DNA from: Nemertoderma westbladi | Lineage: Eukaryota > Animalia > Xenacoelomorpha | DNA length: 64,000 nucleotides | Reading direction: 5' to 3' | NCBI GenBank assembly: GCA_032718475.1 | Contig: JAUCBJ010000022.1 | Span: 1 to 64,000, forward strand | In this document: positions 1 to 64,000 of the stretch, piece after piece | How positions within the stretch are numbered: position 1 is the stretch's first letter | Layout of the letters: the number at the start of each line of letters is the position of its first letter | Translations under genes and position numbers: made by a program | The notes under the pieces: model-generated | What the model saw: only the letters and a program-made list of their open reading frames with translations | What the model was told of the DNA's origin: nothing | Databases searched by the model: none

Positions 1-3000
1 ATCTGTTTGCCCTTACACGCACTTTTCCGTATCTGTTTGCCCTTACCCGCACTCACCTGTGATTGTGAATCTGTTTGCCCTTACCCGCACTCACCTGTGA
101 TTGTGTATCTGTTTGCCCTTACCCGCACTCACCTGTGATTGTGTATCTGTTTGCTCTTACACGCACTTTTCCGTATCTGTTTGCTCTTACCCGCACTCAC
201 CTGTGATTGTGTATCTGTTTGCTCTTACCCGCACTCACCTGTGATTCCGTATCTGTTTGCTCTTACCCGCACTCACCTGTGATTGTGTATCTGTTTGCTC
301 TTACACGCACTTTTCCGTATCTGTTTGCTCTTACCCGCACTCACCTGTGATTGTGTATCTGTTTGCTCTTACACGCACTTTTCCGTATCTGTTTGCCCTT
401 ACCCGCACTCACCTGTGATTGTGAATCTGTTTGCCCTTACACGCACTTTTCCGTATCTGTTTGCTCTTACCCGCACTCACCTGTGATTGTGTATCTGTTT
501 GCTCTTACACGCACTTTTCCGTATCTGTTTGCTCTTACCCGCACTCACCTGTGATTGTGTATCTGTTTGCTCTTACACGCACTTTTCCGTATCTGTTTGC
601 TCTTACCCGCACTCACCTGTGATTGTGTATCTGTTTGCTCTTACACGCACTTTTCCGTATCTGTTTGCTCTTACCCGCACTCACCTGTGATTGTGTATCT
701 GTTTGCCCTTACCCGCACTCACCTGTGATTGTGAATCTGTTTGCCCTTACACGCACTTTTCCGTATCTGTTTGCCCTTACCCGCACTCACCTGTGATTGT
801 GAATCTGTTTGCTCTTACACGCACTTTTCCGTATCTGTTTGCTCTTACCCGCACTCACCTGTGATTGTGTATCTGTTTGCTCTTACCCGCACTCACCTGT
901 GATTGTGTATCTGTTTGCTCTTACCCGCACTCACCTGTGATTGTGTATCTGTTTGCTCTTACACGCACTTTTCCGTATCTGTTTGCTCTTACCCGCACTC
1001 ACCTGTGATTGTGTATCTGTTTGCCCTTACACGCACTTTTCCGTATCTGTTTGCTCTTACCCGCACTCACCTGTGATTGTGTATCTGTTTGCTCTTACCC
1101 GCACTCACCTGTGATTGTGTATCTGTTTGCTCTTACCCGCACTCACCTGTGATTGTGTATCTGTTTGCTCTTACACGCACTTTTCCGTATCTGTTTGCTC
1201 TTACCCGCACTCACCTGTGATTGTGAATCTGTTTGCCCTTACACGCACTTTTCCGTATCTGTTTGCTCTTACCCGCACTCACCTGTGATTGTGTATCTGT
1301 TTGCTCTTACCCGCACTCACCTGTGATTGTGTATCTGTTTGCCCTTACCCGCACTCACCTGTGATTGTGTATCTGTTTGCCCTTACACGCACTTTTCCGT
1401 ATCTGTTTGCCCTTACACGCACTTTTCCGTATCTGTTTGCTCTTACCCGCACTCACCTGTGATTGTGTATCTGTTTGCCCTTACCCGCACTCACCTGTGA
1501 TTGCGTATCTGTTTGCCCTTACCCGCACTCACCTGTGATTGTGAATCTGTTTGCCCTTACACGCACTTTTCCGTATCTGTTTGCTCTTACCCGCACTCAC
1601 CTGTGATTGTGTATCTGTTTGCTCTTACACGCACTTTTCCGTATCTGTTTGCCCTTACACGCACTTTTCCGTATCTGTTTGCTCTTACCCGCACTCACCT
1701 GTGATTGTGTATCTGTTTGCTCTTACACGCACTTTTCCGTATCTGTTTGCTCTTACCCGCACTCACCTGTGATTGTGTATCTGTTTGCTCTTACACGCAC
1801 TTTTCCGTATCTGTTTGCTCTTACCCGCACTCACCTGTGATTGTGTATCTGTTTGCTCTTACCCGCACTCACCTGTGATTGTGTATCTGTTTGCTCTTAC
1901 CCGCACTCACCTGTGATTGTGTATCTGTTTGCCCTTACACGCACTTTTCCGTATCTGTTTGCCCTTACACGCACTTTTCCGTATCTGTTTGCTCTTACCC
2001 GCACTCACCTGTGATTGCGTATCTGTTTGCCTTACCCGCACTCACCTGTGATTGGTATCTGTTTGCCTTACACGCACTCATCTGTGCTTGCGTATCTGTT
2101 TGCTCTTACCCGCACTCACCTGTGATTGTGTATCTGTTTGCTCTTACACGCACTTTTCCGTATCTGTTTGCCCTTACACGCACTTTTCCGTATCTGTTTG
2201 CTCTTACCCGCACTCACCTGTGATTGTGTATCTGTTTGCCCTTACACGCACTTTTCCGTATCTGTTTGCTCTTACCCGCACTCACCTGTGATTGTGTATC
2301 TGTTTGCTCTTACACGCACTTTTCCGTATCTGTTTGCTCTTACCCGCACTCACCTGTGATTGTGTATCTGTTTGCTCTTACCCGCACTCACCTGTGATTG
2401 TGTATCTGTTTGCTCTTACACGCACTTTTCCGTATCTGTTTGCTCTTACCCGCACTCACCTGTGATTGTGTATCTGTTTGCTCTTACCCGCACTCACCTG
2501 TGATTGTGTATCTGTTTGCTCTTACACGCACTTTTCCGTATCTGTTTGCCCTTACACGCACTTTTCCGTATCTGTTTGCTCTTACCCGCACTCACCTGTG
2601 ATTGTGTATCTGTTTGCTCTTACACGCACTTTTCCGTATCTGTTTGCTCTTACCCGCACTCACCTGTGATTGTGTATCTGTTTGCTCTTACACGCACTTT
2701 TCCGTATCTGTTTGCCCTTACACGCACTTTTCCGTATCTGTTTGCTCTTACCCGCACTCACCTGTGATTGTGTATCTGTTTGCTCTTACACGCACTTTTC
2801 CGTATCTGTTTGCCCTTACACGCACTTTTCCGTATCTGTTTGCTCTTACCCGCACTCACCTGTGATTGTGTATCTGTTTGCTCTTACACGCACTTTTCCG
2901 TATCTGTTTGCTCTTACCCGCACTCACCTGTGATTGTGTATCTGTTTGCCCTTACACGCACTTTTCCGTATCTGTTTGCTCTTACCCGCACTCACCTGTG

Positions 3001-6000
3001 ATTGTGTATCTGTTTGCTCTTACACGCACTTTTCCGTATCTGTTTGCCCTTACACGCACTTTTCCGTATCTGTTTGCTCTTACCCGCACTCACCTGTGAT
3101 TGTGTATCTGTTTGCTCTTACACGCACTTTTCCGTATCTGTTTGCTCTTACCCGCACTCACCTGTGATTGTGTATCTGTTTGCTCTTACACGCACTTTTC
3201 CGTATCTGTTTGCCCTTACACGCACTTTTCCGTATCTGTTTGCTCTTACCCGCACTCACCTGTGATTGTGTATCTGTTTGCTCTTACACGCACTTTTCCG
3301 TATCTGTTTGCTCTTACCCGCACTCACCTGTGATTGTGTATCTGTTTGCTCTTACACGCACTTTTCCGTATCTGTTTGCTCTTACCCGCACTCACCTGTG
3401 ATTGTGTATCTGTTTGCCCTTACCCGCACTCACCTGTGATTGTGTATCTGTTTGCCCTTACCCGCACTCACCTGTGATTGTGAATCTGTTTGCTCTTACA
3501 CGCACTTTTCCGTATCTGTTTGCTCTTACCCGCACTCACCTGTGATTGTGTATCTGTTTGCTCTTACACGCACTTTTCCGTATCTGTTTGCTCTTACCCG
3601 CACTCACCTGTGATTGTGTATCTGTTTGCCCTTACCCGCACTCACCTGTGATTGTGTATCTGTTTGCCCTTACCCGCACTCACCTGTGATTGTGAATCTG
3701 TTTGCTCTTACACGCACTTTTCCGTATCTGTTTGCTCTTACCCGCACTCACCTGTGATTGTGTATCTGTTTGCTCTTACACGCACTTTTCCGTATCTGTT
3801 TGCTCTTACCCGCACTCACCTGTGATTGTGTATCTGTTTGCCCTTACCCGCACTCACCTGTGATTGTGTATCTGTTTGCTCTTACACGCACTTTTCCGTA
3901 TCTGTTTGCCCTTACCCGCACTCACCTGTGATTGTGTATCTGTTTGCTCTTACACGCACTTTTCCGTATCTGTTTGCTCTTACCCGCACTCACCTGTGAT
4001 TGTGTATCTGTTTGCTCTTACCCGCACTCACCTGTGATTGCGTATCTGTTTGCTCTTACCCGCACTCACCTGTGATTGTGTATCTGTTTGCTCTTACCCG
4101 CACTCACCTGTGATTGTGAATCTGTTTGCCCTTACACGCACTTTTCCGTATCTGTTTGCTCTTACCCGCACTCACCTGTGATTGTGTATCTGTTTGCCCT
4201 TACACGCACTCACCTGTGATTGTGTATCTGTTTGCCCTTACCCGCACTCACCTGTGATTGTGAATCTGTTTGCTCTTACCCGCACTCACCTGTGATTGTG
4301 AATCTGTTTGCCCTTACCCGCACTCACATGTGATTGTGTATCTGTTTGCCCTTACCCGCACTCACCTGTGATTGTGAATCTGTTTGCTCTTACACGCACT
4401 TTTCCGTATCTGTTTGCTCTTACCCGCACTCACCTGTGATTGCGTATCTGTTTGCCCTTACCCGCACTCACCTGTGATTGTGAATCTGTTTGCTCTTACC
4501 CGCACTCACCTGTGATTGTGAATCTGTTTGCCCTTACCCGCACTCACATGTGATTGTGTATCTGTTTGCTCTTACCCGCACTCACCTGTGATTGTGAATC
4601 TGTTTGCTCTTACACGCACTTTTCCGTATCTGTTTGCTCTTACCCGCACTCACCTGTGATTGTGTATCTGTTTGCCCTTACACGCACTCACCTGTGATTG
4701 TGTATCTGTTTGCCCTTACCCGCACTCACCTGTGATTGTGAATCTGTTTGCTCTTACCCGCACTCACCTGTGATTGTGAATCTGTTTGCCCTTACCCGCA
4801 CTCACATGTGATTGTGTATCTGTTTGCTCTTACCCGCACTCACCTGTGATTGTGAATCTGTTTGCTCTTACACGCACTTTTCCGTATCTGTTTGCTCTTA
4901 CCCGCACTCACCTGTGATTGTGTATCTGTTTGCCCTTACACGCACTCACCTGTGATTGTGTATCTGTTTGCCCTTACCCGCACTCACCTGTGATTGTGAA
5001 TCTGTTTGCTCTTACCCGCACTCACCTGTGATTGTGAATCTGTTTGCCCTTACCCGCACTCACATGTGATTGTGTATCTGTTTGCTCTTACCCGCACTCA
5101 CCTGTGATTGTGAATCTGTTTGCTCTTACACGCACTTTTCCGTATCTGTTTGCTCTTACCCGCACTCACCTGTGATTGCGTATCTGTTTGCTCTTACCCG
5201 CACTCACCTGTGATTGTGTATCTGTTTGCTCTTACCCGCACTCACCTGTGATTGTGAATCTGTTTGCCCTTACCCGCACTCACCTGTGATTGTGAATCTG
5301 TTTGCCCTTACACGCACTCACCTGTGATTGTGTATCTGTTTGCTCTTACCCGCACTCACCTGTGATTGTGTATCTGTTTGCTCTTACACGCACTTTTCCG
5401 TATCTGTTTGCTCTTACCCGCACTCACCTGTGATTGTGAATCTGTTTGCCCTTACCCGCACTCACATGTGATTGTGTATCTGTTTGCTCTTACACGCACT
5501 TTTCCGTATCTGTTTGCTCTTACCCGCACTCACCTGTGATTGTGAATCTGTTTGCCCTTACCCGCACTCACCTGTGATTGCGTATCTGTTTGCTCTTACC
5601 CGCACTCACCTGTGATTGTGTATCTGTTTGCTCTTACCCGCACTCACCTGTGATTGTGTATCTGTTTGCTCTTACCCGCACTCACCTGTGATTGTGAATC
5701 TGTTTGCCCTTACCCGCACTCACCTGTGATTGTGTATCTGTTTGCTCTTACCCGCACTCACCTGTGATTGTGAATCTGTTTGCCCTTACCCGCACTCACC
5801 TGTGATTGTGAATCTGTTTGCCCTTACCCGCACTCACCTGTGATTGTGAATCTGTTTGCCCTTACCCGCACTCACCTGTGATTGTGAATCTGTTTGCCCT
5901 TACACGCACTTTTCCGTATCTGTTTGCTCTTACCCGCACTCACCTGTGATTGTGTATCTGTTTGCCCTTACACGCACTCACCTGTGATTGTGTATCTGTT

Positions 6001-9000
6001 TGCCCTTACCCGCACTCACCTGTGATTGTGAATCTGTTTGCTCTTACCCGCACTCACCTGTGATTGTGAATCTGTTTGCCCTTACCCGCACTCACCTGTG
6101 ATTGTGTATCTGTTTGCCCTTACCCGCACTCACATGTGATTGTGTATCTGTTTGCTCTTACACGCACTTTTCCGTATCTGTTTGCTCTTACCCGCACTCA
6201 CCTGTGATTGTGTATCTGTTTGCTCTTACCCGCACTCACATGTGATTGTGTATCTGTTTGCTCTTACACGCACTTTTCCGTATCTGTTTGCTCTTACCCG
6301 CACTCACCTGTGATTGTGTATCTGTTTGCTCTTACACGCACTTTTCCGTATCTGTTTGCTCTTACCCGCACTCACCTGTGATTGTGTATCTGTTTGCTCT
6401 TACACGCACTTTTCCGTATCTGTTTGCTCTTACCCGCACTCACCTGTGATTGCGTATCTGTTTGCTCTTACCCGCACTCACCTGTGATTGTGTATCTGTT
6501 TGCTCTTACCCGCACTCACATGTGATTGTGTATCTGTTTGCTCTTACACGCACTTTTCCGTATCTGTTTGCTCTTACCCGCACTCACCTGTGATTGTGTA
6601 TCTGTTTGCTCTTACACGCACTTTTCCGTATCTGTTTGCCCTTACACGCACTCACCTGTGATTGCGTATCTGTTTGCCCTTACACGCACTTTTCCGTATC
6701 TGTTTGCTCTTACCCGCACTCACCTGTGATTGTGTATCTGTTTGCCCTTACACGCACTCACCTGTGATTGTGTATCTGTTTGCCCTTACCCGCACTCACC
6801 TGTGATTGTGAATCTGTTTGCTCTTACCCGCACTCACCTGTGATTGTGAATCTGTTTGCCCTTACCCGCACTCACATGTGATTGTGTATCTGTTTGCCCT
6901 TACACGCACTTTTCCGTATCTGTTTGCTCTTACCCGCACTCACCTGTGATTGTGTATCTGTTTGCCCTTACACGCACTCACCTGTGATTGTGTATCTGTT
7001 TGCCCTTACCCGCACTCACCTGTGATTGTGAATCTGTTTGCTCTTACCCGCACTCACCTGTGATTGTGAATCTGTTTGCTCTTACCCGCACTCACCTGTG
7101 ATTGTGTATCTGTTTGCTCTTACACGCACTTTTCCGTATCTGTTTGCTCTTACCCGCACTCACCTGTGATTGCGTATCTGTTTGCTCTTACCCGCACTCA
7201 CCTGTGATTGTGTATCTGTTTGCTCTTACCCGCACTCACCTGTGATTGTGAATCTGTTTGCCCTTACACGCACTTTTCCGTATCTGTTTGCTCTTACCCG
7301 CACTCACCTGTGATTGTGTATCTGTTTGCCCTTACACGCACTCACCTGTGATTGTGTATCTGTTTGCCCTTACCCGCACTCACCTGTGATTGTGAATCTG
7401 TTTGCTCTTACCCGCACTCACCTGTGATTGTGAATCTGTTTGCCCTTACCCGCACTCACCTGTGATTGTGTATCTGTTTGCCCTTACCCGCACTCACATG
7501 TGATTGTGTATCTGTTTGCTCTTACACGCACTTTTCCGTATCTCTTTGCCCTTACCCGCACTCACCTGTGATTGCGTATCTGTTTGCTCTTACCCGCACT
7601 CACCTGTGATTGTGTATCTGTTTGCCCTTACCCGCACTCACCTGTGATTGTGTATCTGTTTGCTCTTACCCGCACTCACCTGTGATTGTGTATCTGTTTG
7701 CTCTTACACGCACTTTTCCGTATCTGTTTGCCCTTACCCGCACTCACCTGTGATTGTGTATCTGTTTGCTCTTACCCGCACTCACCTGTGATTGTGTATC
7801 TGTTTGCTCTTACACGCACTTTTCCGTATCTGTTTGCTCTTACCCGCACTCACCTGTGATTGCGTATCTGTTTGCCCTTACCCGCACTCACCTGTGATTG
7901 CGTATCTGTTTGCCCTTACCCGCACTCACCTGTGATTGCGTATCTGTTTGCCCTTACCCGCACTCACCTGTGATTGCGTATCTGTTTGCCCTTACCCGCA
8001 CTCACCTGTGATTGCGTATCTGTTTGCCCTTACCCGCACTCACCTGTGATTGTGTATCTGTTTGCTCTTACACGCACTTTTCCGTATCTGTTTGCTCTTA
8101 CCCGCACTCACCTGTGATTGTGTATCTGTTTGCTCTTACCCGCACTCACCTGTGATTGTGTATCTGTTTGCTCTTACACGCACTTTTCCGTATCTGTTTG
8201 CCCTTACACGCACTCACCTGTGATTGTGTATCTGTTTGCCCTTACCCGCACTCACCTGTGATTGTGAATCTGTTTGCTCTTACCCGCACTCACCTGTGAT
8301 TGTGTATCTGTTTGCCCTTACCCGCACTCACCTGTGATTGCGTATCTGTTTGCTCTTACACGCACTTTTCCGTATCTGTTTGCTCTTACCCGCACTCACC
8401 TGTGATTGTGTATCTGTTTGCCCTTACCCGCACTCACCTGTGATTGCGTATCTGTTTGCTCTTACACGCACTTTTCCGTATCTGTTTGCTCTTACCCGCA
8501 CTCACCTGTGATTGTGTATCTGTTTGCTCTTACCCGCACTCACCTGTGATTGTGTATCTGTTTGCTCTTACACGCACTTTTCCGTATCTGTTTGCTCTTA
8601 CCCGCACTCACCTGTGATTGTCTATCTGTTTGCCCTTACCCGCACTCACCTGTGATTGCGTATCTGTTTGCCCTTACCCGCACTCACCTGTGATTGTGAA
8701 TCTGTTTGCCCTTACACGCACTTTTCCGTATCTGTTTGCCCTTACCCGCACTCACCTGTGATTGTGTATCTGTTTGCTCTTACCCGCACTCACCTGTGAT
8801 TGTGTATCTGTTTGCTCTTACCCGCACTCACCTGTGATTGTGTATCTGTTTGCTCTTACCCGCACTCACCTGTGATTGTGTATCTGTTTGCTCTTACCCG
8901 CACTCACCTGTGATTGTGTATCTGTTTGCTCTTACCCGCACTCACCTGTGATTGTGTATCTGTTTGCTCTTACCCGCACTCACCTGTGATTGTGTATCTG

Positions 9001-12000
9001 TTTGCTCTTACCCGCACTCACCTGTGATTGTGTATCTGTTTGCTCTTACACGCACTTTTCCGTATCTGTTTGCTCTTACCCGCACTCACCTGTGATTGTC
9101 TATCTGTTTGCCCTTACCCGCACTCACCTGTGATTGCGTATCTGTTTGCCCTTACCCGCACTCACCTGTGATTGCGTATCTGTTTGCCCTTACCCGCACT
9201 CACCTGTGATTGTGAATCTGTTTGCCCTTACACGCACTTTTCCGTATCTGTTTGCCCTTACCCGCACTCACCTGTGATTGTGTATCTGTTTGCCCTTACC
9301 CGCACTCACCTGTGATTGTGAATCTGTTTGCCCTTACACGCACTTTTCCGTATCTGTTTGCCCTTACCCGCACTCACCTGTGATTGTGTATCTGTTTGCT
9401 CTTACCCGCACTCACCTGTGATTGTCTATCTGTTTGCCCTTACCCGCACTCACCTGTGATTGCGTATCTGTTTGCCCTTACCCGCACTCACCTGTGATTG
9501 CGTATCTGTTTGCCCTTACCCGCACTCACCTGTGATTGTGAATCTGTTTGCCCTTACACGCACTTTTCCGTATCTGTTTGCCCTTACCCGCACTCACCTG
9601 TGATTGTGTATCTGTTTGCTCTTACCCGCACTCACCTGTGATTGTGTATCTGTTTGCTCTTACCCGCACTCACCTGTGATTGTGTATCTGTTTGCTCTTA
9701 CCCGCACTCACCTGTGATTGTGTATCTGTTTGCTCTTACCCGCACTCACCTGTGATTGTGTATCTGTTTGCTCTTACCCGCACTCACCTGTGATTGTGTA
9801 TCTGTTTGCTCTTACCCGCACTCACCTGTGATTGTGTATCTGTTTGCTCTTACCCGCACTCACCTGTGATTGTGTATCTGTTTGCTCTTACACGCACTTT
9901 TCCGTATCTGTTTGCTCTTACCCGCACTCACCTGTGATTGTCTATCTGTTTGCCCTTACCCGCACTCACCTGTGATTGCGTATCTGTTTGCCCTTACCCG
10001 CACTCACCTGTGATTGTGAATCTGTTTGCCCTTACACGCACTTTTCCGTATCTGTTTGCCCTTACCCGCACTCACCTGTGATTGTGTATCTGTTTGCTCT
10101 TACCCGCACTCACCTGTGATTGTGTATCTGTTTGCTCTTACCCGCACTCACCTGTGATTGTGTATCTGTTTGCTCTTACCCGCACTCACCTGTGATTGTG
10201 TATCTGTTTGCTCTTACCCGCACTCACCTGTGATTGTGTATCTGTTTGCTCTTACCCGCACTCACCTGTGATTGTGTATCTGTTTGCTCTTACCCGCACT
10301 CACCTGTGATTGTGTATCTGTTTGCTCTTACACGCACTTTTCCGTATCTGTTTGCTCTTACCCGCACTCACCTGTGATTGTCTATCTGTTTGCCCTTACC
10401 CGCACTCACCTGTGATTGCGTATCTGTTTGCCCTTACCCGCACTCACCTGTGATTGTGAATCTGTTTGCCCTTACACGCACTTTTCCGTATCTGTTTGCC
10501 CTTACCCGCACTCACCTGTGATTGTGTATCTGTTTGCTCTTACACGCACTTTTCCGTATCTGTTTGCCCTTACCCGCACTCACCTGTGATTGTGTATCTG
10601 TTTGCTCTTACCCGCACTCACCTGTGATTGTGTATCTGTTTGCTCTTACCCGCACTCACCTGTGATTGTGAATCTGTTTGCTCTTACCCGCACTCACCTG
10701 TGATTGTGTATCTGTTTGCTCTTACCCGCACTCACCTGTGATTGTGTATCTGTTTGCTCTTACACGCACTTTTCCGTATCTGTTTGCCCTTACCCGCACT
10801 CACCTGTGATTGTGTATCTGTTTGCTCTTACCCGCACTCACCTGTGATTGTGTATCTGTTTGCTCTTACCCGCACTCACCTGTGATTGTGTATCTGTTTG
10901 CTCTTACACGCACTTTTCCGTATCTGTTTGCTCTTACCCGCACTCACCTGTGATTGTGTATCTGTTTGCTCTTACCCGCACTCACCTGTGATTGTGTATC
11001 TGTTTGCTCTTACACGCACTCACCTGTGATTGTGTATCTGTTTGCCCTTACCCGCACTCACCTGTGATTGCGTATCTGTTTGCTCTTACCCGCACTCACC
11101 TGTGATTGTGTATCTGTTTGCTCTTACACGCACTTTTCCGTATCTGTTTGCCCTTACACGCACTCACCTGTGATTGTGTATCTGTTTGCCCTTACCCGCA
11201 CTCACCTGTGATTGTGAATCTGTTTGCTCTTACCCGCACTCACCTGTGATTGTGTATCTGTTTGCCCTTACCCGCACTCACCTGTGATTGCGTATCTGTT
11301 TGCTCTTACACGCACTTTTCCGTATCTGTTTGCTCTTACCCGCACTCACCTGTGATTGTGTATCTGTTTGCTCTTACCCGCACTCACCTGTGATTGTGTA
11401 TCTGTTTGCTCTTACCCGCACTCACCTGTGATTGTGTATCTGTTTGCCCTTACCCGCACTCACCTGTGATTGTGAATCTGTTTGCTCTTACCCGCACTCA
11501 CCTGTGATTGTGTATCTGTTTGCCCTTACCCGCACTCACCTGTGATTGTGAATCTGTTTGCTCTTACCCGCACTCACCTGTGATTGTGTATCTGTTTGCC
11601 CTTACCCGCACTCACCTGTGATTGCGTATCTGTTTGCTCTTACACGCACTTTTCCGTATCTGTTTGCTCTTACCCGCACTCACCTGTGATTGTGTATCTG
11701 TTTGCTCTTACCCGCACTCACCTGTGATTGTGTATCTGTTTGCTCTTACCCGCACTCACCTGTGATTGCGTATCTGTTTGCCCTTACCCGCACTCACCTG
11801 TGATTGTGAATCTGTTTGCCCTTACACGCACTTTTCCGTATCTGTTTGCTCTTACCCGCACTCACCTGTGATTGTGTATCTGTTTGCTCTTACCCGCACT
11901 CACCTGTGATTGTGTATCTGTTTGCTCTTACCCGCACTCACCTGTGATTGTGTATCTGTTTGCCCTTACCCGCACTCACCTGTGATTGTGTATCTGTTTG

Positions 12001-39000: not shown

Positions 39001-42000
39001 TGCTCTTACCCGCACTCACCTGTGATTGTGAATCTGTTTGCCCTTACACGCTCTCACCTGTGATTGCGTATCTGTTTGCCCTTACACGCACTTTTCCGTA
39101 TCTGTTTGCTCTTACCCGCACTCACCTGTGATTGTGTATCTGTTTGCCCTTACCCGCACTCACCTGTGATTGCGTATCTGTTTGCCCTTACCCGCACTCA
39201 CCTGTGATTGCGTATCTGTTTGCCCTTACACGCACTTTTCCGTATCTGTTTGCTCTTACCCGCACTCACCTGTGATTGTGTATCTGTTTGCCCTTACCCG
39301 CACTCACCTGTGATTGTGAATCTGTTTGCCCTTACACGCACTTTTCCGTATCTGTTTGCCCTTACCCGCACTCACCTGTGATTGCGTATCTGTTTGCCCT
39401 TACCCGCACTCACCTGTGATTGTGAATCTGTTTGCCCTTACACGCACTTTTCCGTATCTGTTTGCCCTTACCCGCACTCACCTGTGATTGTGTATCTGTT
39501 TGCCCTTACCCGCACTCACCTGTGATTGCGTATCTGTTTGCCCTTACCCGCACTCACCTGTGATTGTGAATCTGTTTGCCCTTACACGCACTTTTCCGTA
39601 TCTGTTTGCTCTTACCCGCACTCACCTGTGATTGTGTATCTGTTTGCCCTTACCCGCACTCACCTGTGATTGTGAATCTGTTTGCCCTTACACGCACTTT
39701 TCCGTATCTGTTTGCCCTTACACGCACTCACCTGTGATTGCGTATCTGTTTGCCCTTACCCGCACTCACCTGTGATTGCGTATCTGTTTGCCCTTACACG
39801 CACTTTTCCGTATCTGTTTGCTCTTACCCGCACTCACCTGTGATTGTGTATCTGTTTGCCCTTACCCGCACTCACCTGTGATTGTGAATCTGTTTGCCCT
39901 TACACGCACTTTTCCGTATCTGTTTGCCCTTACCCGCACTCACCTGTGATTGCGTATCTGTTTGCCCTTACCCGCACTCACCTGTGATTGTGAATCTGTT
40001 TGCCCTTACACGCACTTTTCCGTATCTGTTTGCCCTTACACGCACTCACCTGTGATTGCGTATCTGTTTGCCCTTACCCGCACTCACCTGTGATTGCGTA
40101 TCTGTTTGCCCTTACACGCACTTTTCCGTATCTGTTTGCTCTTACCCGCACTCACCTGTGATTGTGTATCTGTTTGCCCTTACCCGCACTCACCTGTGAT
40201 TGCGTATCTGTTTGCCCTTACCCGCACTCACCTGTGATTGCGTATCTGTTTGCCCTTACCCGCACTCACCTGTGATTGTGAATCTGTTTGCCCTTACCCG
40301 CACTCACCTGTGATTGCGTATCTGTTTGCCCTTACCCGCACTCACCTGTGATTGCGTATCTGTTTGCCCTTACCCGCACTCACCTGTGATTGTGAATCTG
40401 TTTGCCCTTACCCGCACTCACCTGTGATTGTGAATCTGTTTGCCCTTACACGCACTTTTCCGTATCTGTTTGCCCTTACCCGCACTCACCTGTGATTGCG
40501 TATCTGTTTGCCCTTACCCGCACTCACCTGTGATTGCGTATCTGTTTGCCCTTACACGCACTTTTCCGTATCTGTTTGCCCTTACCCGCACTCACCTGTG
40601 ATTGCGTATCTGTTTGCCCTTACACGCACTCACCTGTGATTGCGTATCTGTTTGCCCTTACCCGCACTCACCTGTGATTGCGTATCTGTTTGCCCTTACC
40701 CGCACTCACCTGTGATTGTGAATCTGTTTGCCCTTACCCGCACTCACCTGTGATTGTGAATCTGTTTGCCCTTACACGCACTTTTCCGTATCTGTTTGCC
40801 CTTACCCGCACTCACCTGTGATTGCGTATCTGTTTGCCCTTACCCGCACTCACCTGTGATTGCGTATCTGTTTGCCCTTACACGCACTTTTCCGTATCTG
40901 TTTGCCCTTACCCGCACTCACCTGTGATTGCGTATCTGTTTGCCCTTACACGCACTCACCTGTGATTGCGTATCTGTTTGCCCTTACCCGCACTCACCTG
41001 TGATTGCGTATCTGTTTGCCCTTACCCGCACTCACCTGTGATTGTGAATCTGTTTGCCCTTACCCGCACTCACCTGTGATTGTGAATCTGTTTGCCCTTA
41101 CACGCACTTTTCCGTATCTGTTTGCCCTTACCCGCACTCACCTGTGATTGCGTATCTGTTTGCCCTTACCCGCACTCACCTGTGATTGTGAATCTGTTTG
41201 CCCTTACACGCACTTTTCCGTATCTGTTTGCCCTTACCCGCACTCACCTGTGATTGCGTATCTGTTTGCCCTTACCCGCACTCACCTGTGATTGCGTATC
41301 TGTTTGCCCTTACCCGCACTCACCTGTGATTGCGTATCTGTTTGCCCTTACACGCACTTTTCCGTATCTGTTTGCTCTTACCCGCACTCACCTGTGATTG
41401 CGTATCTGTTTGCCCTTACCCGCACTCACCTGTGATTGCGTATCTGTTTGCCCTTACCCGCACTCACCTGTGATTGCGTATCTGTTTGCCCTTACCCGCA
41501 CTCACCTGTGATTGCGTATCTGTTTGCCCTTACCCGCACTCACCTGTGATTGCGTATCTGTTTGCCCTTACCCGCACTCACCTGTGATTGTGAATCTGTT
41601 TGCCCTTACACGCACTTTTCCGTATCTGTTTGCTCTTACCCGCACTCACCTGTGATTGCGTATCTGTTTGCCCTTACCCGCACTCACCTGTGATTGCGTA
41701 TCTGTTTGCCCTTACACGCACTTTTCCGTATCTGTTTGCTCTTACCCGCACTCACCTGTGATTGTGTATCTGTTTGCCCTTACACGCACTTTTCCGTATC
41801 TGTTTGCTCTTACCCGCACTCACCTGTGATTGTGAATCTGTTTGCTCTTACCCGCACTCACCTGTGATTGCGTATCTGTTTGCCCTTACCCGCACTCACC
41901 TGTGATTGCGTATCTGTTTGCCCTTACCCGCACTCACCTGTGATTGCGTATCTGTTTGCCCTTACCCGCACTCACCTGTGATTGCGTATCTGTTTGCCCT

Positions 42001-45000
42001 TACCCGCACTCACCTGTGATTGCGTATCTGTTTGCCCTTACCCGCACTCACCTGTGATTGTGAATCTGTTTGCCCTTACACGCACTTTTCCGTATCTGTT
42101 TGCTCTTACCCGCACTCACCTGTGATTGCGTATCTGTTTGCCCTTACCCGCACTCACCTGTGATTGCGTATCTGTTTGCCCTTACACGCACTTTTCCGTA
42201 TCTGTTTGCTCTTACCCGCACTCACCTGTGATTGTGTATCTGTTTGCCCTTACACGCACTTTTCCGTATCTGTTTGCTCTTACCCGCACTCACCTGTGAT
42301 TGTGAATCTGTTTGCCCTTACACGCACTTTTCCGTATCTGTTTGCTCTTACCCGCACTCACCTGTGATTGTGTATCTGTTTGCTCTTACACGCACTTTTC
42401 CGTATCTGTTTGCTCTTACCCGCACTCACCTGTGATTGCGTATCTGTTTGCCCTTACCCGCACTCACCTGTGATTGCGTATCTGTTTGCCCTTACCCGCA
42501 CTCACCTGTGATTGCGTATCTGTTTGCCCTTACCCGCACTCACCTGTGATTGCGTATCTGTTTGCCCTTACCCGCACTCACCTGTGATTGCGTATCTGTT
42601 TGCCCTTACCCGCACTCACCTGTGATTGTGTATCTGTTTGCTCTTACCCGCACTCACCTGTGATTGTGTATCTGTTTGCTCTTACACGCACTTTTCCGTA
42701 TCTGTTTGCCCTTACACGCACTTTTCCGTATCTGTTTGCTCTTACCCGCACTCACCTGTGATTGCGTATCTGTTTGCCCTTACCCGCACTCACCTGTGAT
42801 TGTGTATCTGTTTGCTCTTACACGCACTTTTCCGTATCTGTTTGCCCTTACACGCACTTTTCCGTATCTGTTTGCTCTTACCCGCACTCACCTGTGATTG
42901 CGTATCTGTTTGCCCTTACCCGCACTCACCTGTGATTGTGTATCTGTTTGCTCTTACCCGCACTCACCTGTGATTGCGTATCTGTTTGCCCTTACCCGCA
43001 CTCACCTGTGATTGCGTATCTGTTTGCCCTTACCCGCACTCACCTGTGATTGTGAATCTGTTTGCCCTTACACGCACTTTTCCGTATCTGTTTGCTCTTA
43101 CCCGCACTCACCTGTGATTGTGTATCTGTTTGCCCTTACCCGCACTCACCTGTGATTGTGTATCTGTTTGCTCTTACCCGCACTCACCTGTGATTGCGTA
43201 TCTGTTTGCCCTTACCCGCACTCACATGTGATTGTGTATCTGTTTGCCCTTACCCGCACTCACCTGTGATTGTGTATCTGTTTGCTCTTACCCGCACTCA
43301 CCTGTGATTGCGTATCTGTTTGCCCTTACCCGCACTCACATGTGATTGTGTATCTGTTTGCCCTTACCCGCACTCACCTGTGATTGCGTATCTGTTTGCC
43401 CTTACCCGCACTCACCTGTGATTGTGTATCTGTTTGCTCTTACCCGCACTCACCTGTGATTGTGTATCTGTTTGACCTTACCCGCACTCACATGTGATTG
43501 TGTATCTGTTTGCCCTTATCCGCACTCACCTGTGATTGCGTATCTGTTTGCCCATACCCTCACTCACCTGTGATTGCGTTTGCCCTTACCCGCACTCACC
43601 CGTGATTGTGAATCAGTTTGCCCTTACCCGCACTCACCTGTGATTGCGTATCTGTTTGCCCTTACCCGCACTCACCTGTGATTGTGTATCTGTTTGCTCT
43701 TACCCGCACTCACCTGTGATTGTGTATCTGTTTGACCTTACCCGCACTCACATGTGATTGTGTATCTGTTTGCCCTTATCCGCACTCACCTGTGATTGTG
43801 TATCTGTTTGCTCTTACCCGCACTCACCTGTGATTGTGTATCTGTTTGACCTTACCCGCACTCACATGTGATTGTGTATCTGTTTGCCCTTATCCGCACT
43901 CACCTGTGATTGCGTATCTGTTTGCCCATACCCTCACTCACCTGTGATTGCGTTTGCCCTTACCCGCACTCACCCGTGATTGTGAATCTGTTTGCCCTTA
44001 CCCGCACTCACCTGTGATTGCGTATCTGTTTGCCCTTACCCGCACTCACCTGTGATTGTGAATCTGTTTGCCCTTACACGCACTCACCTGTGATTGCGTT
44101 TGCCCTTACCCGCACTCACCTGTGATTGCGTATCTGTTTGCCCTTACCCGCACTCACCTGTGATTGCGTTTGCCCTTACCCGCACTCACCCGTGATTGTG
44201 AATCTGTTTGCCCTTACCCGCACTCACCTGTGATTGCGTATCTGTTTGCCCTTACCCGCACTCACCTGTGATTGTGAATCTGTTTGCCCTTACACGCACT
44301 CACCTGTGATTGCGTTTGCCCTTACCCGCACTCACCTGTGATTGCGTATCTGTTTGCCCTTACCCGCACTCACCTGTGATTGTGTATCTGTTTGCTCTTA
44401 CCCGCACTCACATGTGATTGTGTATCTGTTTGCCCTTACCCGCACTCACCCGTGATTGTGAATCTGTTTGCCCTTACCCGCACTCACCTGTGATTGCGTA
44501 TCTGTTTGCCCTTACCCGCACTCACCTGTGATTGTGAATCTGTTTGCCCTTACACGCACTCACCTGTGATTGCGTTTGCCCTTACCCGCACTCACCTGTG
44601 ATTGCGTATCTGTTTGCCCTTACCCGCACTCACCTGTGATTGCGTATCTGTTTGCCCTTACCCGCACTCACCTGTGATTGTGAATCTGTTTGCCCTTACA
44701 CGCACTCACCTGTGATTGCGTTTGCCCTTACCCGCACTCACCTGTGATTGCGTATCTGTTTGCCCTTACCCGCACTCACCTGTGATTGTGAATCTGTTTG
44801 CCCTTACACGCACTCACCTGTGATTGCGTTTGCCCTTACCCGCACTCACCTGTGATTGCGTATCTGTTTGCCCTTACCCGCACTCACCTGTGATTGTGAA
44901 TCTGTTTGCCCTTACCCGCACTCACCTGTGATTGCGTATCTGTTTGCCCTTACCCGCACTCACCTGTGATTGTCTATCTGTTTGCCCTTACCCGCACTCA

Positions 45001-48000
45001 CCTGTGATTGCGTTTGCCCTTACCCGCACTCACCCGTGATTGCGTTTGCCCTTACCCGCACTCACCTGTGATTGTGTATCTGTTTGCTCTTACCCGCACT
45101 CACATGTGATTGCGTATCTGTTTGCCCTTACCCGCACTCACCTGTGATTGTGTATCTGTTTGCCCTTATCCGCACTCACCTGTGATTGCGTTTGCCCTTA
45201 CCCGCACTCACCTGTGATTGCGTATCTGTTTGCCCTTACCCGCACTCACCTGTGATTGTCTATCTGTTTGCCCTTACCCGCACTCACCTGTGATTGCGTT
45301 TGCCCTTACCCGCACTCACCTGTGATTGCGTATCTGTTTGCCCTTACCCGCACTCACCTGTGATTGTCTATCTGTTTGCCCTTATCCGCACTCACCTGTG
45401 ATTGCGTTTGCCCTTACCCGCACTCACCTGTGATTGCGTATCTGTTTGCCCTTACCCGCACTCACCTGTGATTGTCTATCTGTTTGCCCTTATCCGCACT
45501 CACCTGTGATTGCGTTTGCCCTTACCCGCACTCACCTGTGATTGCGTATCTGTTTGCCCTTACCCGCACTCACCTGTGATTGTCTATCTGTTTGCCCTTA
45601 CCCGCACTCACCTGTGATTGCGTTTGCCCTTACCCGCACTCACCCGTGATTGCGTTTGCCCTTACCCGCACTCACCTGTGATTGTGTATCTGTTTGCCCT
45701 TACCCGCACTCACCTGTGATTGTGTATCTGTTTGCCCTTACCCGCACTCACCTGTGATTGTGTATCTGTTTGCTCTTACCCGCACTCACATGTGATTGCG
45801 TATCGGTTTGCCCTTACCCGCACTCACCTGTGATTGCGTTTGCCCTTACCCGCACTCACCCGTGATTGCGTATCGGTTTGCCCTTACCCGCACTCACCTG
45901 TGATTGCGTTTGCCCTTACCCGCACTCACCCGTGATTGCGTTTGCCCTTACCCGCACTCACCCGTGATTGTGTATCTGTTTGCCCTTACCCGCACTCACC
46001 TGTGATTGCGTATCTGTTTGCTCTTACCCGCACTCACCCGTGATTGTGAATCTGTTTGCCCTTAACCGCACTCACCTGTGATTGTGTATCTGTTTGCTCT
46101 TACCCGCACTCACATGTGATTGCGTATCGGTTTGCCCTTACCCGCACTCACCTGTGATTGCGTTTGCCCTTACCCGCACTCACCCGCGATTGTGAATCTG
46201 TTTGCCCTTACCCGCACTCACCTGTGATTGCGTATCTGTTTGCCCTTACCCGCACTCACCTGTGATTGTGTATCTGTTTGCCCTTACCCGCACTCACCTG
46301 TGATTGCGTATCTGTTTGCCCTTACCCGCACTCACCTGTGATTGCGTTTGCCCTTACCCGCACTCACCCGTGATTGCGTTTGCCCTTACCCGCACTCACC
46401 CGTGATTGTGTATCTGTTTGCCCTTACCCGCACTCACCTGTGATTGCGTATCTGTTTGCTCTTACCCGCACTCACCCGTGATTGTGAATCTGTTTGCCCT
46501 TAACCGCACTCACCTGTGATTGTGTATCTGTTTGCTCTTACCCGCACTCACCTGTGATTGCGTATCTGTTTGCCCTTACCCGCACTCACCTGTGATTGCG
46601 TATCTGTTTGCCCTTACCCGCACTCACCTGTGATTGCGTATCTGTTTGCCCTTACCCGCACTCACCTGTGATTGCGTATCTGTTTGCCCTTACCCGCACT
46701 CACCCGTGATTGTGTATCTGTTTGCCCTTACCCGCACTCACCTGTGATTGCGTATCTGTTTGCTCTTACCCGCACTCACCCGTGATTGTGAATCTGTTTG
46801 CCCTTAACCGCACTCACCTGTGATTGTGTATCTGTTTGCTCTTACCCGCACTCACCTGTGATTGCGTATCTGTTTGCCCTTACCCGCACTCACCTGTGAT
46901 TGCGTATCTGTTTGCCCTTACCCGCACTCACCTGTGATTGCGTTTGCCCTTACCCGCACTCACCTGTGATTGCGTTTGCCCTTACCCGCACTCACCCGTG
47001 ATTGCGTTTGCCCTTACCCGCACTCACCCGTGATTGTGTATCTGTTTGCCCTTACCCGCACTCACCTGTGATTGCGTATCTGTTTGCCCTTACCCGCACT
47101 CACCTGTGATTGCGTATCTGTTTGCCCTTACCCGCACTCACCTGTGATTGCGTATCTGTTTGCTCTTACCCGCACTCACCCGTGATTGTGAATCTGTTTG
47201 CCCTTAACCGCACTCACCTGTGATTGTGTATCTGTTTGCTCTTACCCGCACTCACATGTGATTGCGTATCGGTTTGCCCTTACCCGCACTCACCTGTGAT
47301 TGCGTTTGCCCTTACCCGCACTCACCTGTGATTGTGTATCTGTTTGCTCTTACCCGCACTCACATGTGATTGCGTATCGGTTTGCCCTTACCCGCACTCA
47401 CATGTGATTGCGTATCTGTTTGCCCATACCCTCACTCACCTGTGATTGTCTATCTGTTTGCCCTTACCCGCACTCACCTGTGATTGCGTATCTGTTTGCC
47501 CATACCCTCACTCACCTGTGATTGTCTATCTGTTTGCCCTTACCCGCACTCACCTGTGATTGCGTATCTGTTTGCCCTTACCCGCACTCACCTGTGATTG
47601 CGTATCTGTTTGCCCTTATCCGCACTCACCTGTGATTGCGTATCTGTTTGCCCTTATCCGCACTCACCTGTGATTGCGTATCTGTTTGCCCATACCCGCA
47701 CTCACCTGTGATTGCGTATCTGTTTGCCCTTATCCGCACTCACCTGTGATTGCGTATCTGTTTGCCCATACCCGCACTCACCTGTGATTGCGTTTGCCCT
47801 TACCCGCACTCACCCGTGATTGTGAATCTGTTTGCCCTTACCCGCACTCACCTGTGATTGCGTATCTGTTTGCCCTTACCCGCACTCACCTGTGATTGCG
47901 TATCTGTTTGCCCTTATCCGCACTCACCTGTGATTGCGTATCTGTTTGCCCATACCCTCACTCACCTGTGATTGCGTTTGCCCTTACCCGCACTCACCCG

Positions 48001-51000
48001 TGATTGTGAATCTGTTTGCCCTTACCCGCACTCACCTGTGATTGCGTATCTGTTTGCCCTTATCCGCACTCACCTGTGATTGCGTATCTGTTTGCCCATA
48101 CCCGCACTCACCTGTGATTGCGTTTGCCCTTACCCGCACTCACCCGTGATTGTGAATCTGTTTGCCCTTACCCGCACTCACCTGTGATTGCGTATCTGTT
48201 TGCCCTTACCCGCACTCACCTGTGATTGCGTATCTGTTTGCCCTTATCCGCACTCACCTGTGATTGCGTATCTGTTTGCCCATACCCTCACTCACCTGTG
48301 ATTGCGTTTGCCCTTACCCGCACTCACCCGTGATTGTGAATCTGTTTGCCCTTACCCGCACTCACCTGTGATTGTGTATCTGTTTGCTCTTACCCGCACT
48401 CACCTGTGATTGCGTATCTGTTTGCCCTTACCCGCACTCACCTGTGATTGCGTTTGCCCTTACCCGCACTCACCCGTGATTGTGAATCTGTTTGCCCTTA
48501 CCCGCACTCACCTGTGATTGCGTATCTGTTTGCCCATACCCTCACTCACCTGTGATTGCGTTTGCCCTTACCCGCACTCACCCGTGATTGTGAATCTGTT
48601 TGCCCTTACCCGCACTCACCTGTGATTGCGTATCTGTTTGCCCTTATCCGCACTCACCTGTGATTGCGTATCTGTTTGCCCATACCCTCACTCACCTGTG
48701 ATTGCGTTTGCCCTTACCCGCACTCACCCGTGATTGTGAATCTGTTTGCCCTTACCCGTAATCACCTGTGATTGCGTATCTGTTTGCCCTTACACGCACA
48801 TTTGCGTATCTGTTTGCCCTTACCCGCACTCACCTGTGATTGTCTATCTGTTTGCCCTTACCCGTAATCACCTGTGATTGCGTATCTGTTTGCCCTTACC
48901 CGCACTCACCTGTGATTGCGTATCTGTTTGCCCTTATCCGCACTCACCTGTGATTGCGTATCTGTTTGCCCATACCCTCACTCACCTGTGATTGCGTTTG
49001 CCCTTACCCGCACTCACCCGTGATTGTGAATCTGTTTGCCCTTACCCGCACTCACCCGTGATTGTGAATCTGTTTGCCCTTACCCGCACTCACCTGTGAT
49101 TGCGTATCTGTTTGCCCTTACACACACTCACCTGTGATTGCGTTTGCCCTTACCCGCACTCACCCGTGATTGTGAATCTGTTTGCCCTTACCCGCACTCA
49201 CCTGTGATTGTGTATCTGTTTGCCCTTACCCGCACTCACCTGTGATTGCGTTTGCCCTTACCCGCACTCACCCGTGATTGTGAATCTGTTTGCCCTTACC
49301 CGCACTCACCTGTGATTGCGTATCTGTTTGCCCATACCCTCACTCACCTGTGATTGCGTTTGCCCTTACCCGCACTCACCCGTGATTGTGAATCTGTTTG
49401 CCCTTACCCGCACTCACCTGTGATTGCGTATCTGTTTGCCCTTACCCGCACTCACCTGTGATTGTGTATCTGTTTGCTCTTACCCGCACTCACCTGTGAT
49501 TGCGTATCTGTTTGCCCTTATCCGCACTCACCTGTGATTGCGTATCTGTTTGCCCTTACCCGCACTCACCTGTGATTGTGTATCTGTTTGCCCTTACCCG
49601 CACTCACCTGTGATTGCGTATCTGTTTGCCCTTACCCGCACTCACCTGTGATTGTGAATCTGTTTGCTCTTACCCGCACTCACCTGTGATTGTGAATCTG
49701 TTTGCCCTTATCCGCACTCACCTGTGATTGCGTATCTGTTTGCCCTTACCCGCACTCACCTGTGATTGTGTATCTGTTTGCCCTTACCCGCACTCACCTG
49801 TGATTGTGTATCTGTTTGCCCTTACCCGCACTCACCTGTGATTGTCTATCTGTTTGCCCTTACCCGTAATCACCTGTGATTGCGTATCTGTTTGCCCTTA
49901 CCCGCACTCACCTGTGATTGCGTATCTGTTTGCCCTTACCCGCACTCACCTGTGATTGCGTATCTGTTTGCCCTTATCCGCACTCACCTGTGATTGCGTA
50001 TCTGTTTGCCCTTACCCGCACTCACCTGTGATTGTGTATCTGTTTGCCCTTACCCGCACTCACCTGTGATTGCGTATCTGTTTGCCCTTACACGCACTCA
50101 CCTGTGATTGCGTATCTGTTTGCCCTTACCCGCACTCACCTGTGATTGTGTATCTGTTTGCTCTTACCCGCACTCACCTGTGATTGTGAATCTGTTTGCC
50201 CTTATCCGCACTCACCTGTGATTGCGTATCTGTTTGCCCTTACCCGCACTCACCTGTGATTGTGTATCTGTTTGCCCTTACCCGCACTCACCTGTGATTG
50301 TGTATCTGTTTGCCCTTACCCGCACTCACCTGTGATTGCGTATCTGTTTGCCCTTACACGCACTCACCTGTGATTGTGTATCTGTTTGCCCATACCCGCA
50401 CTCACCTGTGATTGTCTATCTGTTTGCCCTTACCCGCACTCACCTGTGATTGCGTATCTGTTTGCCCTTATCCGCACTCACCTGTGATTGCGTATCTGTT
50501 TGCCCTTATCCGCACTCACCTGTGATTGCGTATCTGTTTGCCCTTACCCGCACTCACCTGTGATTGCGTATCTGTTTGCCCTTATCCGCACTCACCTGTG
50601 ATTGCGTATCTGTTTGCCCATACCCTCACTCACCTGTGATTGTCTATCTGTTTGCCCTTACCCGTAATCACCTGTGATTGCGTATCTGTTTGCCCTTACC
50701 CGCACTCACCTGTGATTGCGTATCTGTTTGCCCTTATCCGCACTCACCTGTGATTGCGTATCTGTTTGCCCATACCCTCACTCACCTGTGATTGCGTTTG
50801 CCCTTACCCGCACTCACCCGTGATTGTGAATCTGTTTGCCCTTACCCGCACTCACCTGTGATTGTGTATCTGTTTGCTCTTACCCGCACTCACCTGTGAT
50901 TGCGTATCTGTTTGCCCTTATCCGCACTCACCTGTGATTGCGTATCTGTTTGCCCTTATCCGCACTCACCTGTGATTGCGTATCTGTTTGCCCTTACCCG

Positions 51001-52279
51001 CACTCACCTGTGATTGCGTATCTGTTTGCCCTTATCCGCACTCACCTGTGATTGCGTATCTGTTTGCCCATACCCTCACTCACCTGTGATTGCGTTTGCC
51101 CTTACCCGCACTCACCCGTGATTGTGAATCTGTTTGCCCTTACCCGCACTCACCTGTGATTGCGTATCTGTTTGCCCTTACACGCACATTTGCGTATCTG
51201 TTTGCCCTTACCCGCACTCACCTGTGATTGTCTATCTGTTTGCCCTTACCCGTAATCACCTGTGATTGCGTATCTGTTTGCCCTTACCCGCACTCACCCG
51301 TGATTGTGAATCTGTTTGCCCTTACCCGCACTCACCTGTGATTGCGTATCTGTTTGCCCTTACCCGCACTCACCTGTGATTGTGTATCTGTTTGCTCTTA
51401 CCCGCACTCACATGTGATTGTGTATCTGTTTGCCCTTACCCGCACTCACATGTGATTGCGTATCGGTTTGCCCTTACCCGCACTCACCTGTGATTGCGTT
51501 TGCCCTTACCCGCACTCACCCGTGATTGTGAATCTGTTTGCCCTTACCGCACTCACCCGTGATTGTGAATCTGTTTGCCCTTACACGCACTCACCTGTGA
51601 TTGCGTATCTGTTTGCCCTTACCCGCACTCACCTGTGATTGTCTATCTGTTTGCCCTTACCCGCACTCACCTGTGATTGTGTATCTGTTTGCCCTTACCG
51701 CACTCACCCGTGATTGTGAATCTGTTTGCCCTTACACGCACTCACCTGTGATTGCGTATCTGTTTGCCCTTACCCGCACTCACCTGTGATTGTCTATCTG
51801 TTTGCCCTTACCCGCACTCACCTGTGATTGTGTATCTGTTTGCCCTTACCCGCACTCACCCGTGATTGTGAATCTGTTTGCCCTTACCGCACTCACCCGT
51901 GATTGTGAATCTGTTTGCCCTTACACGCACTCACCTGTGATTGCGTATCTGTTTGCCCTTACACGCACTTTTCCGTATCTGTTTGCCCTTACCCGCACTC
52001 ACCTGTGATTGTCTATCTGTTTGCCCTTACCCGCACTCACCTGTGATTGTGTATCTGTTTGCTCTTACCCGCACTCACATGTGATTGCGTATCGGTTTGC
52101 CCTTACCCGCACTCACCTGTGATTGCGTTTGCCCTTACCCGCACTCACCCGTGATTGTGAATCTGTTTGCCCTTACCCGTAATCACCTGTGATTGCGTAT
52201 CTGTTTGCCCTTACCCGTAATCACCTGTGATTGCGTATCTGTTTGCCCTTACCCGCACTCACCTGTGATTGCGTATCTG
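1..52279. repeat. Tandem minisatellite/satellite array: 38-bp monomer ATCTGTTTGC(C/T)CTTACCCGCACTCACCTGTGATTG(C/T)G(T/A), with interspersed 30-bp and 32-bp variants; continues beyond the window start
   Basis: Directly visible head-to-tail repeats with no unique spacers. The 30-mer is ATCTGTTTGCCCTTACACGCACTTTTCCGT. The 32-mer lacks ATCTGT. The last monomer ends ...GATTGCGTATCTG at 52279, followed by unique sequence. About 1,400 monomers, estimated from length divided by mean unit size, not counted. Confidence 0.99.
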
Positions 52280-52349
52280 GGTCATTTCCACACTGATTAG
52301 CTTTCGTCTTTGCCTCACCAGATGCGATAGCTGCATGAACGTACGGAGC
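52263..52349 (-). CDS. FAM53: Predicted coding exon 4 of FAM53-like gene (87 nt, phase 0-0; APYVHAAIASGEAKTKANQCGNDPDTQSQ); its last 17 nt are part of the first satellite monomer
   Basis: Minus strand: branch-like CTGAC (52401-52397), about 45 nt of AG-free pyrimidine tract, TAG acceptor (52352-52350). Then 29 open codons in the phase left by exon 3 and a perfect CAG|GTGAGT donor (GT at 52262-52261). No protein homology recognised for this peptide. Confidence 0.65.
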
Positions 52350-53022: not shown

Positions 53023-53618
53023 ATCCTTCATCTTGCATAAGTCTAGGAATGGTCTCCGTCGCTTCAGTCCTAGTTTCCTATGCTGACACTGTCCGAGGGA
53101 GGGTTGGCTACGACAACGAGGTTTCCCGCCGTTCGGCATCCGCTTACCGGTTGCCACACGAACCGGGCCGGGCGCCAACCCGGGACTGAACCGACTCAAC
53201 TCGATAGCACCGAGGCCCTCCGTGAGACTGATGGACCGGAAGTCGCACGGACTGTCGTCACTTCCGGGGGGGCTGACCAGCCAGGCGAACTGCTCCACGC
53301 TGGCGGGTCTCCACGGCGACGGCTGCGGTGTCGGCGACGACTCGCCGCTCCAGGCGCCGCCGCAGCGCGGCGACGCGGAGCTCGCGGGTCGGATCGGGAC
53401 CGGAGCGAATATCCGACGCACCTCATCCTCGGCGGCCACCGATAACTCGTCCTCGAGACTCCGACAGTGGCGTTTCGCAAGCGGCACGGATCGCTCGCCC
53501 GCGTCTATACGGTAGACCGAACGGGATTGGTACTTTCGTAACCCGGGCGATGGGCAGAACGCGGATACGGAGGGAGTTGCATTTGAACTGATCCGTGACC
53601 ACGGAGTCTCTGGTGAGG
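53023..53618 (-). CDS. FAM53: FAM53-family protein, large coding exon 3 (596 nt, phase 1-0)
   Basis: GC-rich open frame with KRHCRSL, RPASSAS, RCRSQP and LGLKRRRPFLDLCKM. These match hallmark motifs of vertebrate FAM53A/B (KRHCRSLS, RPSSAS, RCRSQP, KRRR..RPSLD..KM; recalled, not searched). Acceptor TTTGTTTCACAG at 53619; donor GAT|GTTAGT at 53022, right after KMKD. Confidence 0.92.
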
Positions 53619-63999: not shown

Positions 64000-64000
64000 T

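Follow-up and report, generated by a model that had tools for sequence, protein, structure and literature searches.

The stretch analysed here comprises the first 64,000 nucleotides (nt) of contig JAUCBJ010000022.1 in the Nemertoderma westbladi assembly GCA_032718475.1, referred to below as the window. On its minus strand lies a plausibly FAM53-like gene, and most of the window is taken up by a tandem array in the intron that follows exon 4 of this gene, each unit being a copy of the junction between that exon and its intron (Table 1). The array runs past the left edge of the window, its far end lying outside. The features open to testing place it in a known class of boundary-spanning minisatellites, in which its size is extreme.

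An array of splice donors inside a gene

Tandem Repeats Finder (TRF) reported a period of 38 between 29 and 52279, with 1,445 copies and 85% matches, and decomposition of the minus strand gave 1,446 units of 72 types (1,085 of 38 nt, 300 of 30 nt, 43 of 32 nt and 18 others). Since no unit among them exceeds 42 nt, the array contains no foreign island. A perfect donor, CAGGTGAGT, is present in 1,041 of the 1,446 units, a density of 39.8 per 2 kb; it reads CAG/GTGAGT and matches the donor consensus at 9/9 positions, as the preliminary description of this DNA had stated. In most units another donor-like site lies 10 nt downstream of the first (CGG/GTAAGG or GTAAGA, 1,040 sites), and the 30-mers, which lack the main donor, account for 300 of the 1,446 units (21%).

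The amplified unit had been described as 17 nt of exon plus 21 nt of intron, and this is what unit 1 (52279-52242) contains, in continuity with unique sequence. The same description placed the array of junction copies at 1 to 52349; more than 52 kb of junction-derived units are indeed present, but the array ends at 52279, and 52349-52263 is exon. Unit 2 contains a stop codon, and the inner donor at +10 is intact in the window.

In composition the sense strand of the array is 69% purine, with a GC skew of 0.29. Neither AATAAA nor ATTAAA occurs once across its 52 kb, and no canonical G-quadruplex motif was found in it with loops of up to 7 (303 appear only when loops of up to 30 are allowed). 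Rfam returned no matches across 50000-64000. A coding array was ruled out by stops in six of six frames, the longest open stretch being 114 codons, and a role in recursive splicing or as a set of acceptors by the pyrimidine runs, the longest of which is 3.

The junction at the edge of the array is spliced

Six public sequencing runs are available under this species label, none recorded as RNA, of which we analysed four (X1 to X4) and left out two (X5 and X6). Run X4 is registered as 'DNA?', and we treated it as cDNA on two grounds: three GT-AG introns are spliced out of its contigs, and one minor contig terminates in an apparent template-switch adapter. This evidence comes from one sample in the form of contigs, in which rare forms are dropped and degraded products hidden; X4 contig coverage is absent at 52190-52262, and that stretch was not counted as evidence.

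The major X4 contig (contig 26, 978 nt, depth 398) skips 54966-55349, 53619-54904 and 52350-53022, all with GT-AG ends (CT..AC on the forward strand), so that the proposed joint from 53023 to 52349 is present at depth 398, while an internal donor near 52318 is left unused. The match of a second contig (643 nt, depth 422) covers 52340-52263, beyond which the contig has a continuation of 565 letters found nowhere in the window; a 14-mer taken from it is likewise absent. The first 30 letters of the continuation are not a repeat unit and can be read by hand as ten sense codons (SSNVWSVVAR) in phase with exon 4. Together these contigs indicate that exon 4 is included, that the first donor is used and that a further exon lies outside the window. 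The preliminary description had anticipated a joint from 52263 to an exon beyond the displayed sequence; both joint and exon are seen here, and since X4 splices exactly at the first donor the amplified unit is a truly used exon/intron junction.

The same contigs bear on the idea that an intron was gained by tandem duplication of a coding AG/GT (the Rogers model), the array being spliced out between its first and last copies. The unit does contain CAG/GT, and its second half is open for seven codons after exon 4. However, the match of the spliced contig ends precisely at 52263, unrelated sequence follows, and a longest pyrimidine run of 3 suits an acceptor poorly; we give this model almost no credence. 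For the sampled X4 transcript, an mRNA continuing with the second half of the unit is contradicted.

Array length appears to differ between individuals

Of the remaining runs, X1 is a possible source run of the assembly, hence not independent evidence, and X2 and X3 are two libraries of sample S2, a single other individual. Over 52190-52470, X1 gave 23 contigs, among which depth is 750-8,143 for the seven listed unit contigs and 12.6-14.2 for the flank. X2 gave 4 contigs, with one unit contig at 101.9 versus 9.5-27 for the single-copy flank, and X3 gave 6, with unit contigs at 50-116 versus 7-29 for the flank. Contig depth is not a true copy number, and the copy estimates are therefore rough: hundreds of copies of the commonest unit in X1, versus about 4-10 in S2, or 1-4% of the window's own count.

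Since 42,436 of the 52,249 array 31-mers (81%) lie within 4 mismatches of the mapping reference, a large array in S2 should not have escaped the mapping. A single S2 contig spans the intron, exon 4 and units 1 and 2, indicating that a short array at the junction is common to both individuals and its giant size is not. Between individuals, array length seems to vary by two orders of magnitude or more, and it is this contrast, seen in both S2 libraries, on which we rely. The low unit depth in S2, together with the lack of any unit 14-mer in 52280-64000 of the window, also speaks against the unit being a species-wide satellite or transposon repeat.

For six of the seven listed X1 unit contigs, depth relative to the flank agrees within 1.0-1.3 fold with the window word count that fits best, which indicates that the array copies exist in the reads. 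From X1 depth the total array would come to about 52-68 kb if present on both haplotypes and to about double if present on one. It is in this light that an assembly error, by which a satellite from elsewhere in the individual was joined to a short local minisatellite, has to be judged. In favour of such an error, the array continues beyond the window and no read was seen to span its far end. Against it, X1 word depth accounts for the windowed copies, unit types drift smoothly away from the exon (the unit 2 variant recurring only within the first 95 units), and S2 shows the unit attached to exon 4 with few copies overall. An error of this kind is highly improbable.

Finally, a single base beside the array, 52280, tags haplotypes (Table 1). 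The X1 flank contig ends at 52281, one base before it, and thus weakly hints at heterozygosity of the source individual there.

Unit variation suggests growth rather than conservation of donors

The longest repeated block in the array is 18 units, whereas 40 block shuffles averaged 6.75 and never exceeded 9. The diversity of unit types is 3.95 bits at the exon end, where private variants occur, and drops to 2.28 on the far side; units 2-95 hold every GTGATT variant (7/7 occurrences). The repeated blocks of up to 18 units and the drift of unit types along the array lead us to infer that it grew outward from the junction as blocks were duplicated by slippage or unequal exchange. Instability caused by R-loops, in an intron that is transcribed, may have driven this growth.

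Within the 38-nt units, 4 of 21 distinct substitutions fall inside the nine donor positions, versus 5.0 expected; the donor positions are no better conserved than the remainder of the unit. The share of donor-less 30-mers climbs, although not monotonically, from 2% in units 1-150 to 45% in the last block. The non-conservation of the donor and the spread of donor-less units do not fit a device maintained to bind U1.

Such a device had been suggested in the preliminary description, in the form of a sponge or scaffold for the U1 small nuclear ribonucleoprotein (snRNP), a shield against premature polyadenylation, or a switch acting through donor choice and nonsense-mediated decay (NMD). The 1,041 perfect donors on the transcribed strand speak for it, and chicken LL2R offers a precedent. 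As the consulted part of its report describes it, LL2R has a 446-bp unit, extends over about 160 kb, stands alone under a retrotransposon promoter, and produces an RNA, predicted to hold more than 5 donors per 2 kb, that gathers spliceosomal small nuclear RNAs (snRNAs) in imaged condensates (bioRxiv 10.64898/2026.03.19.712899). Like LL2R so described, the present array is long, rich in donors on the transcribed strand and poor in acceptors and poly(A) signals, and its donor density is higher (39.8 perfect sites per 2 kb, versus more than 5 predicted ones in LL2R), although the methods differ. Unlike LL2R, it is intronic, arises from the junction of its own host gene, is apparently not fixed and is known here from sequence alone. 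Against a selected device stand the few copies estimated in another individual, a donor that is not preferentially conserved, 300 donor-less units that have spread, the absence of a canonical poly(A) signal in need of a shield, and a known class of repeats in which the first donor is used. We regard a selected device as very unlikely, and the suggestion was not supported.

The units nearest the exon show a further pattern, since units 2-4 all lack a perfect donor (Table 1). Three consecutive units without one occur at 14 of 1,444 positions overall, at 2 of 147 locally, and at 5 of 1,143 when the 30-mers are excluded. Unit 2 of S2 is the same at the GTGATT positions and has an extra change at -1, and unit 1 of S2 has a change at the inner GT. 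It is suggestive only that the weakened donors of units 2-4 reflect selection against slips to later donors: the pattern was tested post hoc, after it had been seen, edge units of such arrays escape homogenisation, and the inner donor of the window is intact.

The host gene and other elements in the window

The coding parts of the four exons (55433-55350, 54965-54905, 53618-53023 and 52349-52263, minus strand) join into 276 open codons, and translation bears out the earlier observation that the 29 open codons of exon 4 are in phase with the exon that ends at 53023. A FAM53-like identity is plausible from collinear weak matches of exon 3 to Pfam PF15242, which was scanned with exon 3 and with its parts. 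Exon 3 as a whole matches FAM53 and no other Pfam family (E=0.049, 13.9 bits). The final 48 residues of exon 3 align with the end of the profile, FAM53 being again the sole family matched (E=0.0038, 17.5 bits), and an earlier part matches profile positions 105-126 (E=0.12, 12.6 bits) as one of 3 weak families. All three scores lie under the curated cut-off of 27 bits, so that the preliminary assignment to FAM53 is kept here at a lower strength. Searches for homologues of the exon 3 protein gave 0/268, 0/1,319 and 0/3 candidates, phmmer against 1.84 billion representatives gave 0 at E<=0.001, and an ESM Atlas search with exon 3 gave no usable match; these blanks carry no weight regarding FAM53 identity.

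Two observations concern the splice signals of the gene. The donor of exon 3 at 53023/53022 is weak (GAT/GTTAGT, 6/9) and is still used in the major X4 contig; read-through there stops within a few codons. The pyrimidine tract before exon 4 (52359-52391) shows many differences between the window and each of the two S2 runs, and the contigs of these two runs differ from each other there as well.

Table 1. Features of the array and of its host gene in the window
Feature	Position	Strand	Basis
Tandem array, at least 1,446 units: 38 bp in the main form, 30 and 32 bp in deletion variants; local higher-order blocks	1..52279	-	TRF and unit decomposition
Unit 1: final 17 nt of exon 4 and initial 21 nt of the intron; authentic donor at 52263/52262, inner donor-like site at +10	52242..52279	-	Donor use seen in X4 contigs
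Units 2-4, none with a perfect donor: two GTGATT variants and one CGG/GT variant	52128..52241	-	Unit decomposition
Haplotype-tagging single-base difference beside the array: G in the window, T in X2, X3 and X4; Pro versus Thr codon	52280..52280	.	Run contigs
First exon of the spliced contig, which reaches 55629; 55433 is the likely start codon	55350..55629	-	X4 contig
Exon 2, 61 nt	54905..54965	-	Joints 54965/55350 and 53618/54905 in X4
Exon 3, 596 nt; two collinear weak Pfam FAM53 matches (profile 105-126 and 263-302)	53023..53618	-	Pfam profile scan; X4 joints
Exon 4, 87 nt, 29 codons, phase 0 on both sides	52263..52349	-	Spliced at both ends in X4

Introns 2 and 3 contain very high-copy interspersed repeats (54415-54590 and 52590-52820), possibly of the type of miniature inverted-repeat transposable elements (MITEs), which reach a summed depth of up to about 90,000 and are seen in all analysed runs. 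Upstream of the gene and on its own strand, the pol region of a BEL/Pao-type long terminal repeat (LTR) retroelement occupies 60052-64000 (minus; Pfam Peptidase_A17, E=3.8e-44, DUF5641 and integrase) as two in-line frames split by one stop near 62930, and runs past the right edge of the window. Two short minus-strand frames at 56406-57090, without a Pfam match at E<=0.001, resemble the decayed tail of a LINE reverse transcriptase, and beside them lie GC-rich short repeats (57061-57557). Direct and inverted repeats of 18-22 bp were also found upstream of the gene, at 57947-58046 and around 58190-58220.

Relation to known boundary-spanning repeats

Human F7, 6-16, CBS, LMNB2 and PDGF contain minisatellites whose first unit lies over an exon/intron boundary, with 5-25 donors, of which the most upstream is used, alone or with the next two, according to the part of the source available to us (PMC1557585). 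The variable number tandem repeat (VNTR) of F7 has a 37-bp unit and lies in intron 7, and the CBS case lies in intron 13 (PMC1557585; CBS nomenclature also PMC2630376). In F7 minigenes described in the same excerpt, donor choice was unchanged across 1-12 repeats (PMC1557585). The array reported here resembles these VNTRs in that unit 1 lies over the boundary, copies of the donor fill the intron, allele length varies and, in X4 with its short-type haplotype, the most upstream donor is used. It differs from them in scale, at least 1,446 units and more than 52 kb as opposed to 5-25 donors.

Invertebrate examples are the 'mirage' minisatellites of amphioxus Adh3 and of the globins BflGb6 and BflGb9, tandem duplications over a boundary whose length is unstable and which reportedly leave splicing undisturbed; in the portion of the report consulted their interior is homogenised and their edges divergent, edge units escaping homogenisation (PMC3087553). 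The present array is likewise made of boundary-spanning tandem units, variable in length, homogenised inside and distinct at its edges. Unlike the mirages, with 3-6 units in globin haplotypes, it has two to three orders of magnitude more units, is of satellite scale and contains higher-order blocks. Of the traits that define this class, the array shows a unit over a used boundary, head-to-tail copies in the adjacent intron, a varying copy number (roughly estimated, from one other individual) and turnover of the interior with distinct edges; use of the first donor was seen in X4, with its short-type haplotype. Size, a descriptive trait with 3-25 units in the published cases, is not matched by the at least 1,446 units of this array.

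A satellite-sized array within an intron of a protein-coding gene recalls the Y genes of Drosophila, where, in the sections of the sources consulted, gigantic satellite-filled introns reach megabases (PMC6508621, PMC11207136). No donor array of the size reported here was found in the literature searched, which had most subscription journals outside its reach. The satellites of Drosophila Y introns are simple repeats and are not known to derive from splice junctions.

Discussion

Taken together, the array is a splice-donor minisatellite of the mirage type that has probably undergone a runaway, unselected expansion, appears to be short in another individual and is probably tolerated through splicing at the first donor. 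The starting point is the junction of exon 4 and intron 4, which unit 1 comprises and at which the spliced contig leaves the window. From there the array would grow outward by duplication of blocks; by contig depth, the commonest unit has hundreds of copies in the possible source run and about 4-10 in S2. Reasoning from the F7 minigenes and from exon definition, donor 1 alone would have an acceptor 87 nt upstream and would emerge first, so that it would be chosen and the remaining array removed as intron. Slips to later donors are predicted to bring a frameshift or the unit 2 stop, and hence degradation: the donors of units 5, 7 or 8 would include the unit 2 stop, whereas the unit 2 donor or the inner site would shift the frame. 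The weakened donors of units 2-4 may, suggestively, reflect selection against such slips.

An alternative that accepts the same origin holds that the giant allele is harmful, its donors loading U1 snRNP and thereby slowing or stalling transcription, or splicing leaking to downstream donors that run into a stop, with lower output of the gene or a splicing-factor focus as a by-product. The density of perfect donors and the absence of AATAAA and ATTAAA over 52 kb speak for it, and the gathering of snRNAs by LL2R RNA, in the part of that report consulted, is a precedent (bioRxiv 10.64898/2026.03.19.712899). So is the competition by perfect pseudo-sites in F7 minigenes, as far as the excerpt describes it (PMC1557585). 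The lack of perfect donors throughout units 2-4 (14/1,444 three-unit windows, a post hoc count) is in line with it, and the X1 flank contig that stops at 52281 weakly hints at a second haplotype covering for the long one. On the other side, first-donor choice in F7 remained constant across 1-12 repeats (PMC1557585, in the excerpt available), escape of edge units from homogenisation, as the consulted portion of PMC3087553 describes it, can explain units 2-4 without selection, and the +10 inner donor of the window is intact. We consider a harmful giant allele rather unlikely.

Several points weigh against a harmless expansion spliced at its first donor. X4 shares the T at 52280 and four exon 3 variants with the short-array sample S2, unlike the window, and therefore likely reports a short allele, so that the first-donor use seen here probably belongs to a short-type haplotype; transcription and splicing through the 52-kb allele are a prediction. 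In the human cases, the donors following the first are also used in CBS and 6-16, and F7 pseudo-sites with the perfect 9-mer competed with a weaker authentic site, according to the consulted part of the source (PMC1557585). The donors of the present array are perfect consensus sites, the sole case in which F7 pseudo-sites competed. The length contrast, moreover, comes from one other individual and from contig depths only, and the seventh X1 unit contig (depth 750) fits the window counts poorly (0.3-0.6 fold), the positions of its mismatches being not known.

The class of repeat to which this array belongs is known and usually harmless, and the present case extends it from tens of donors to more than 1,000 perfect ones. 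If carriers can be typed, it constitutes a natural experiment on whether splicing keeps to the first donor however many sites compete with it, on whether donor density alone gathers U1 on nascent RNA, and on how a minisatellite becomes a satellite inside an active gene. It is unlikely, but would be of consequence, that a giant allele segregating in this species gives rise to a nascent RNA holding upward of 1,000 perfect U1 sites over more than 52 kb, and with it an allele-specific splicing-factor focus or a throttling of the gene. If this were true, the locus would represent a splice-site repeat-expansion allele in a wild animal, with the short alleles as a built-in control.

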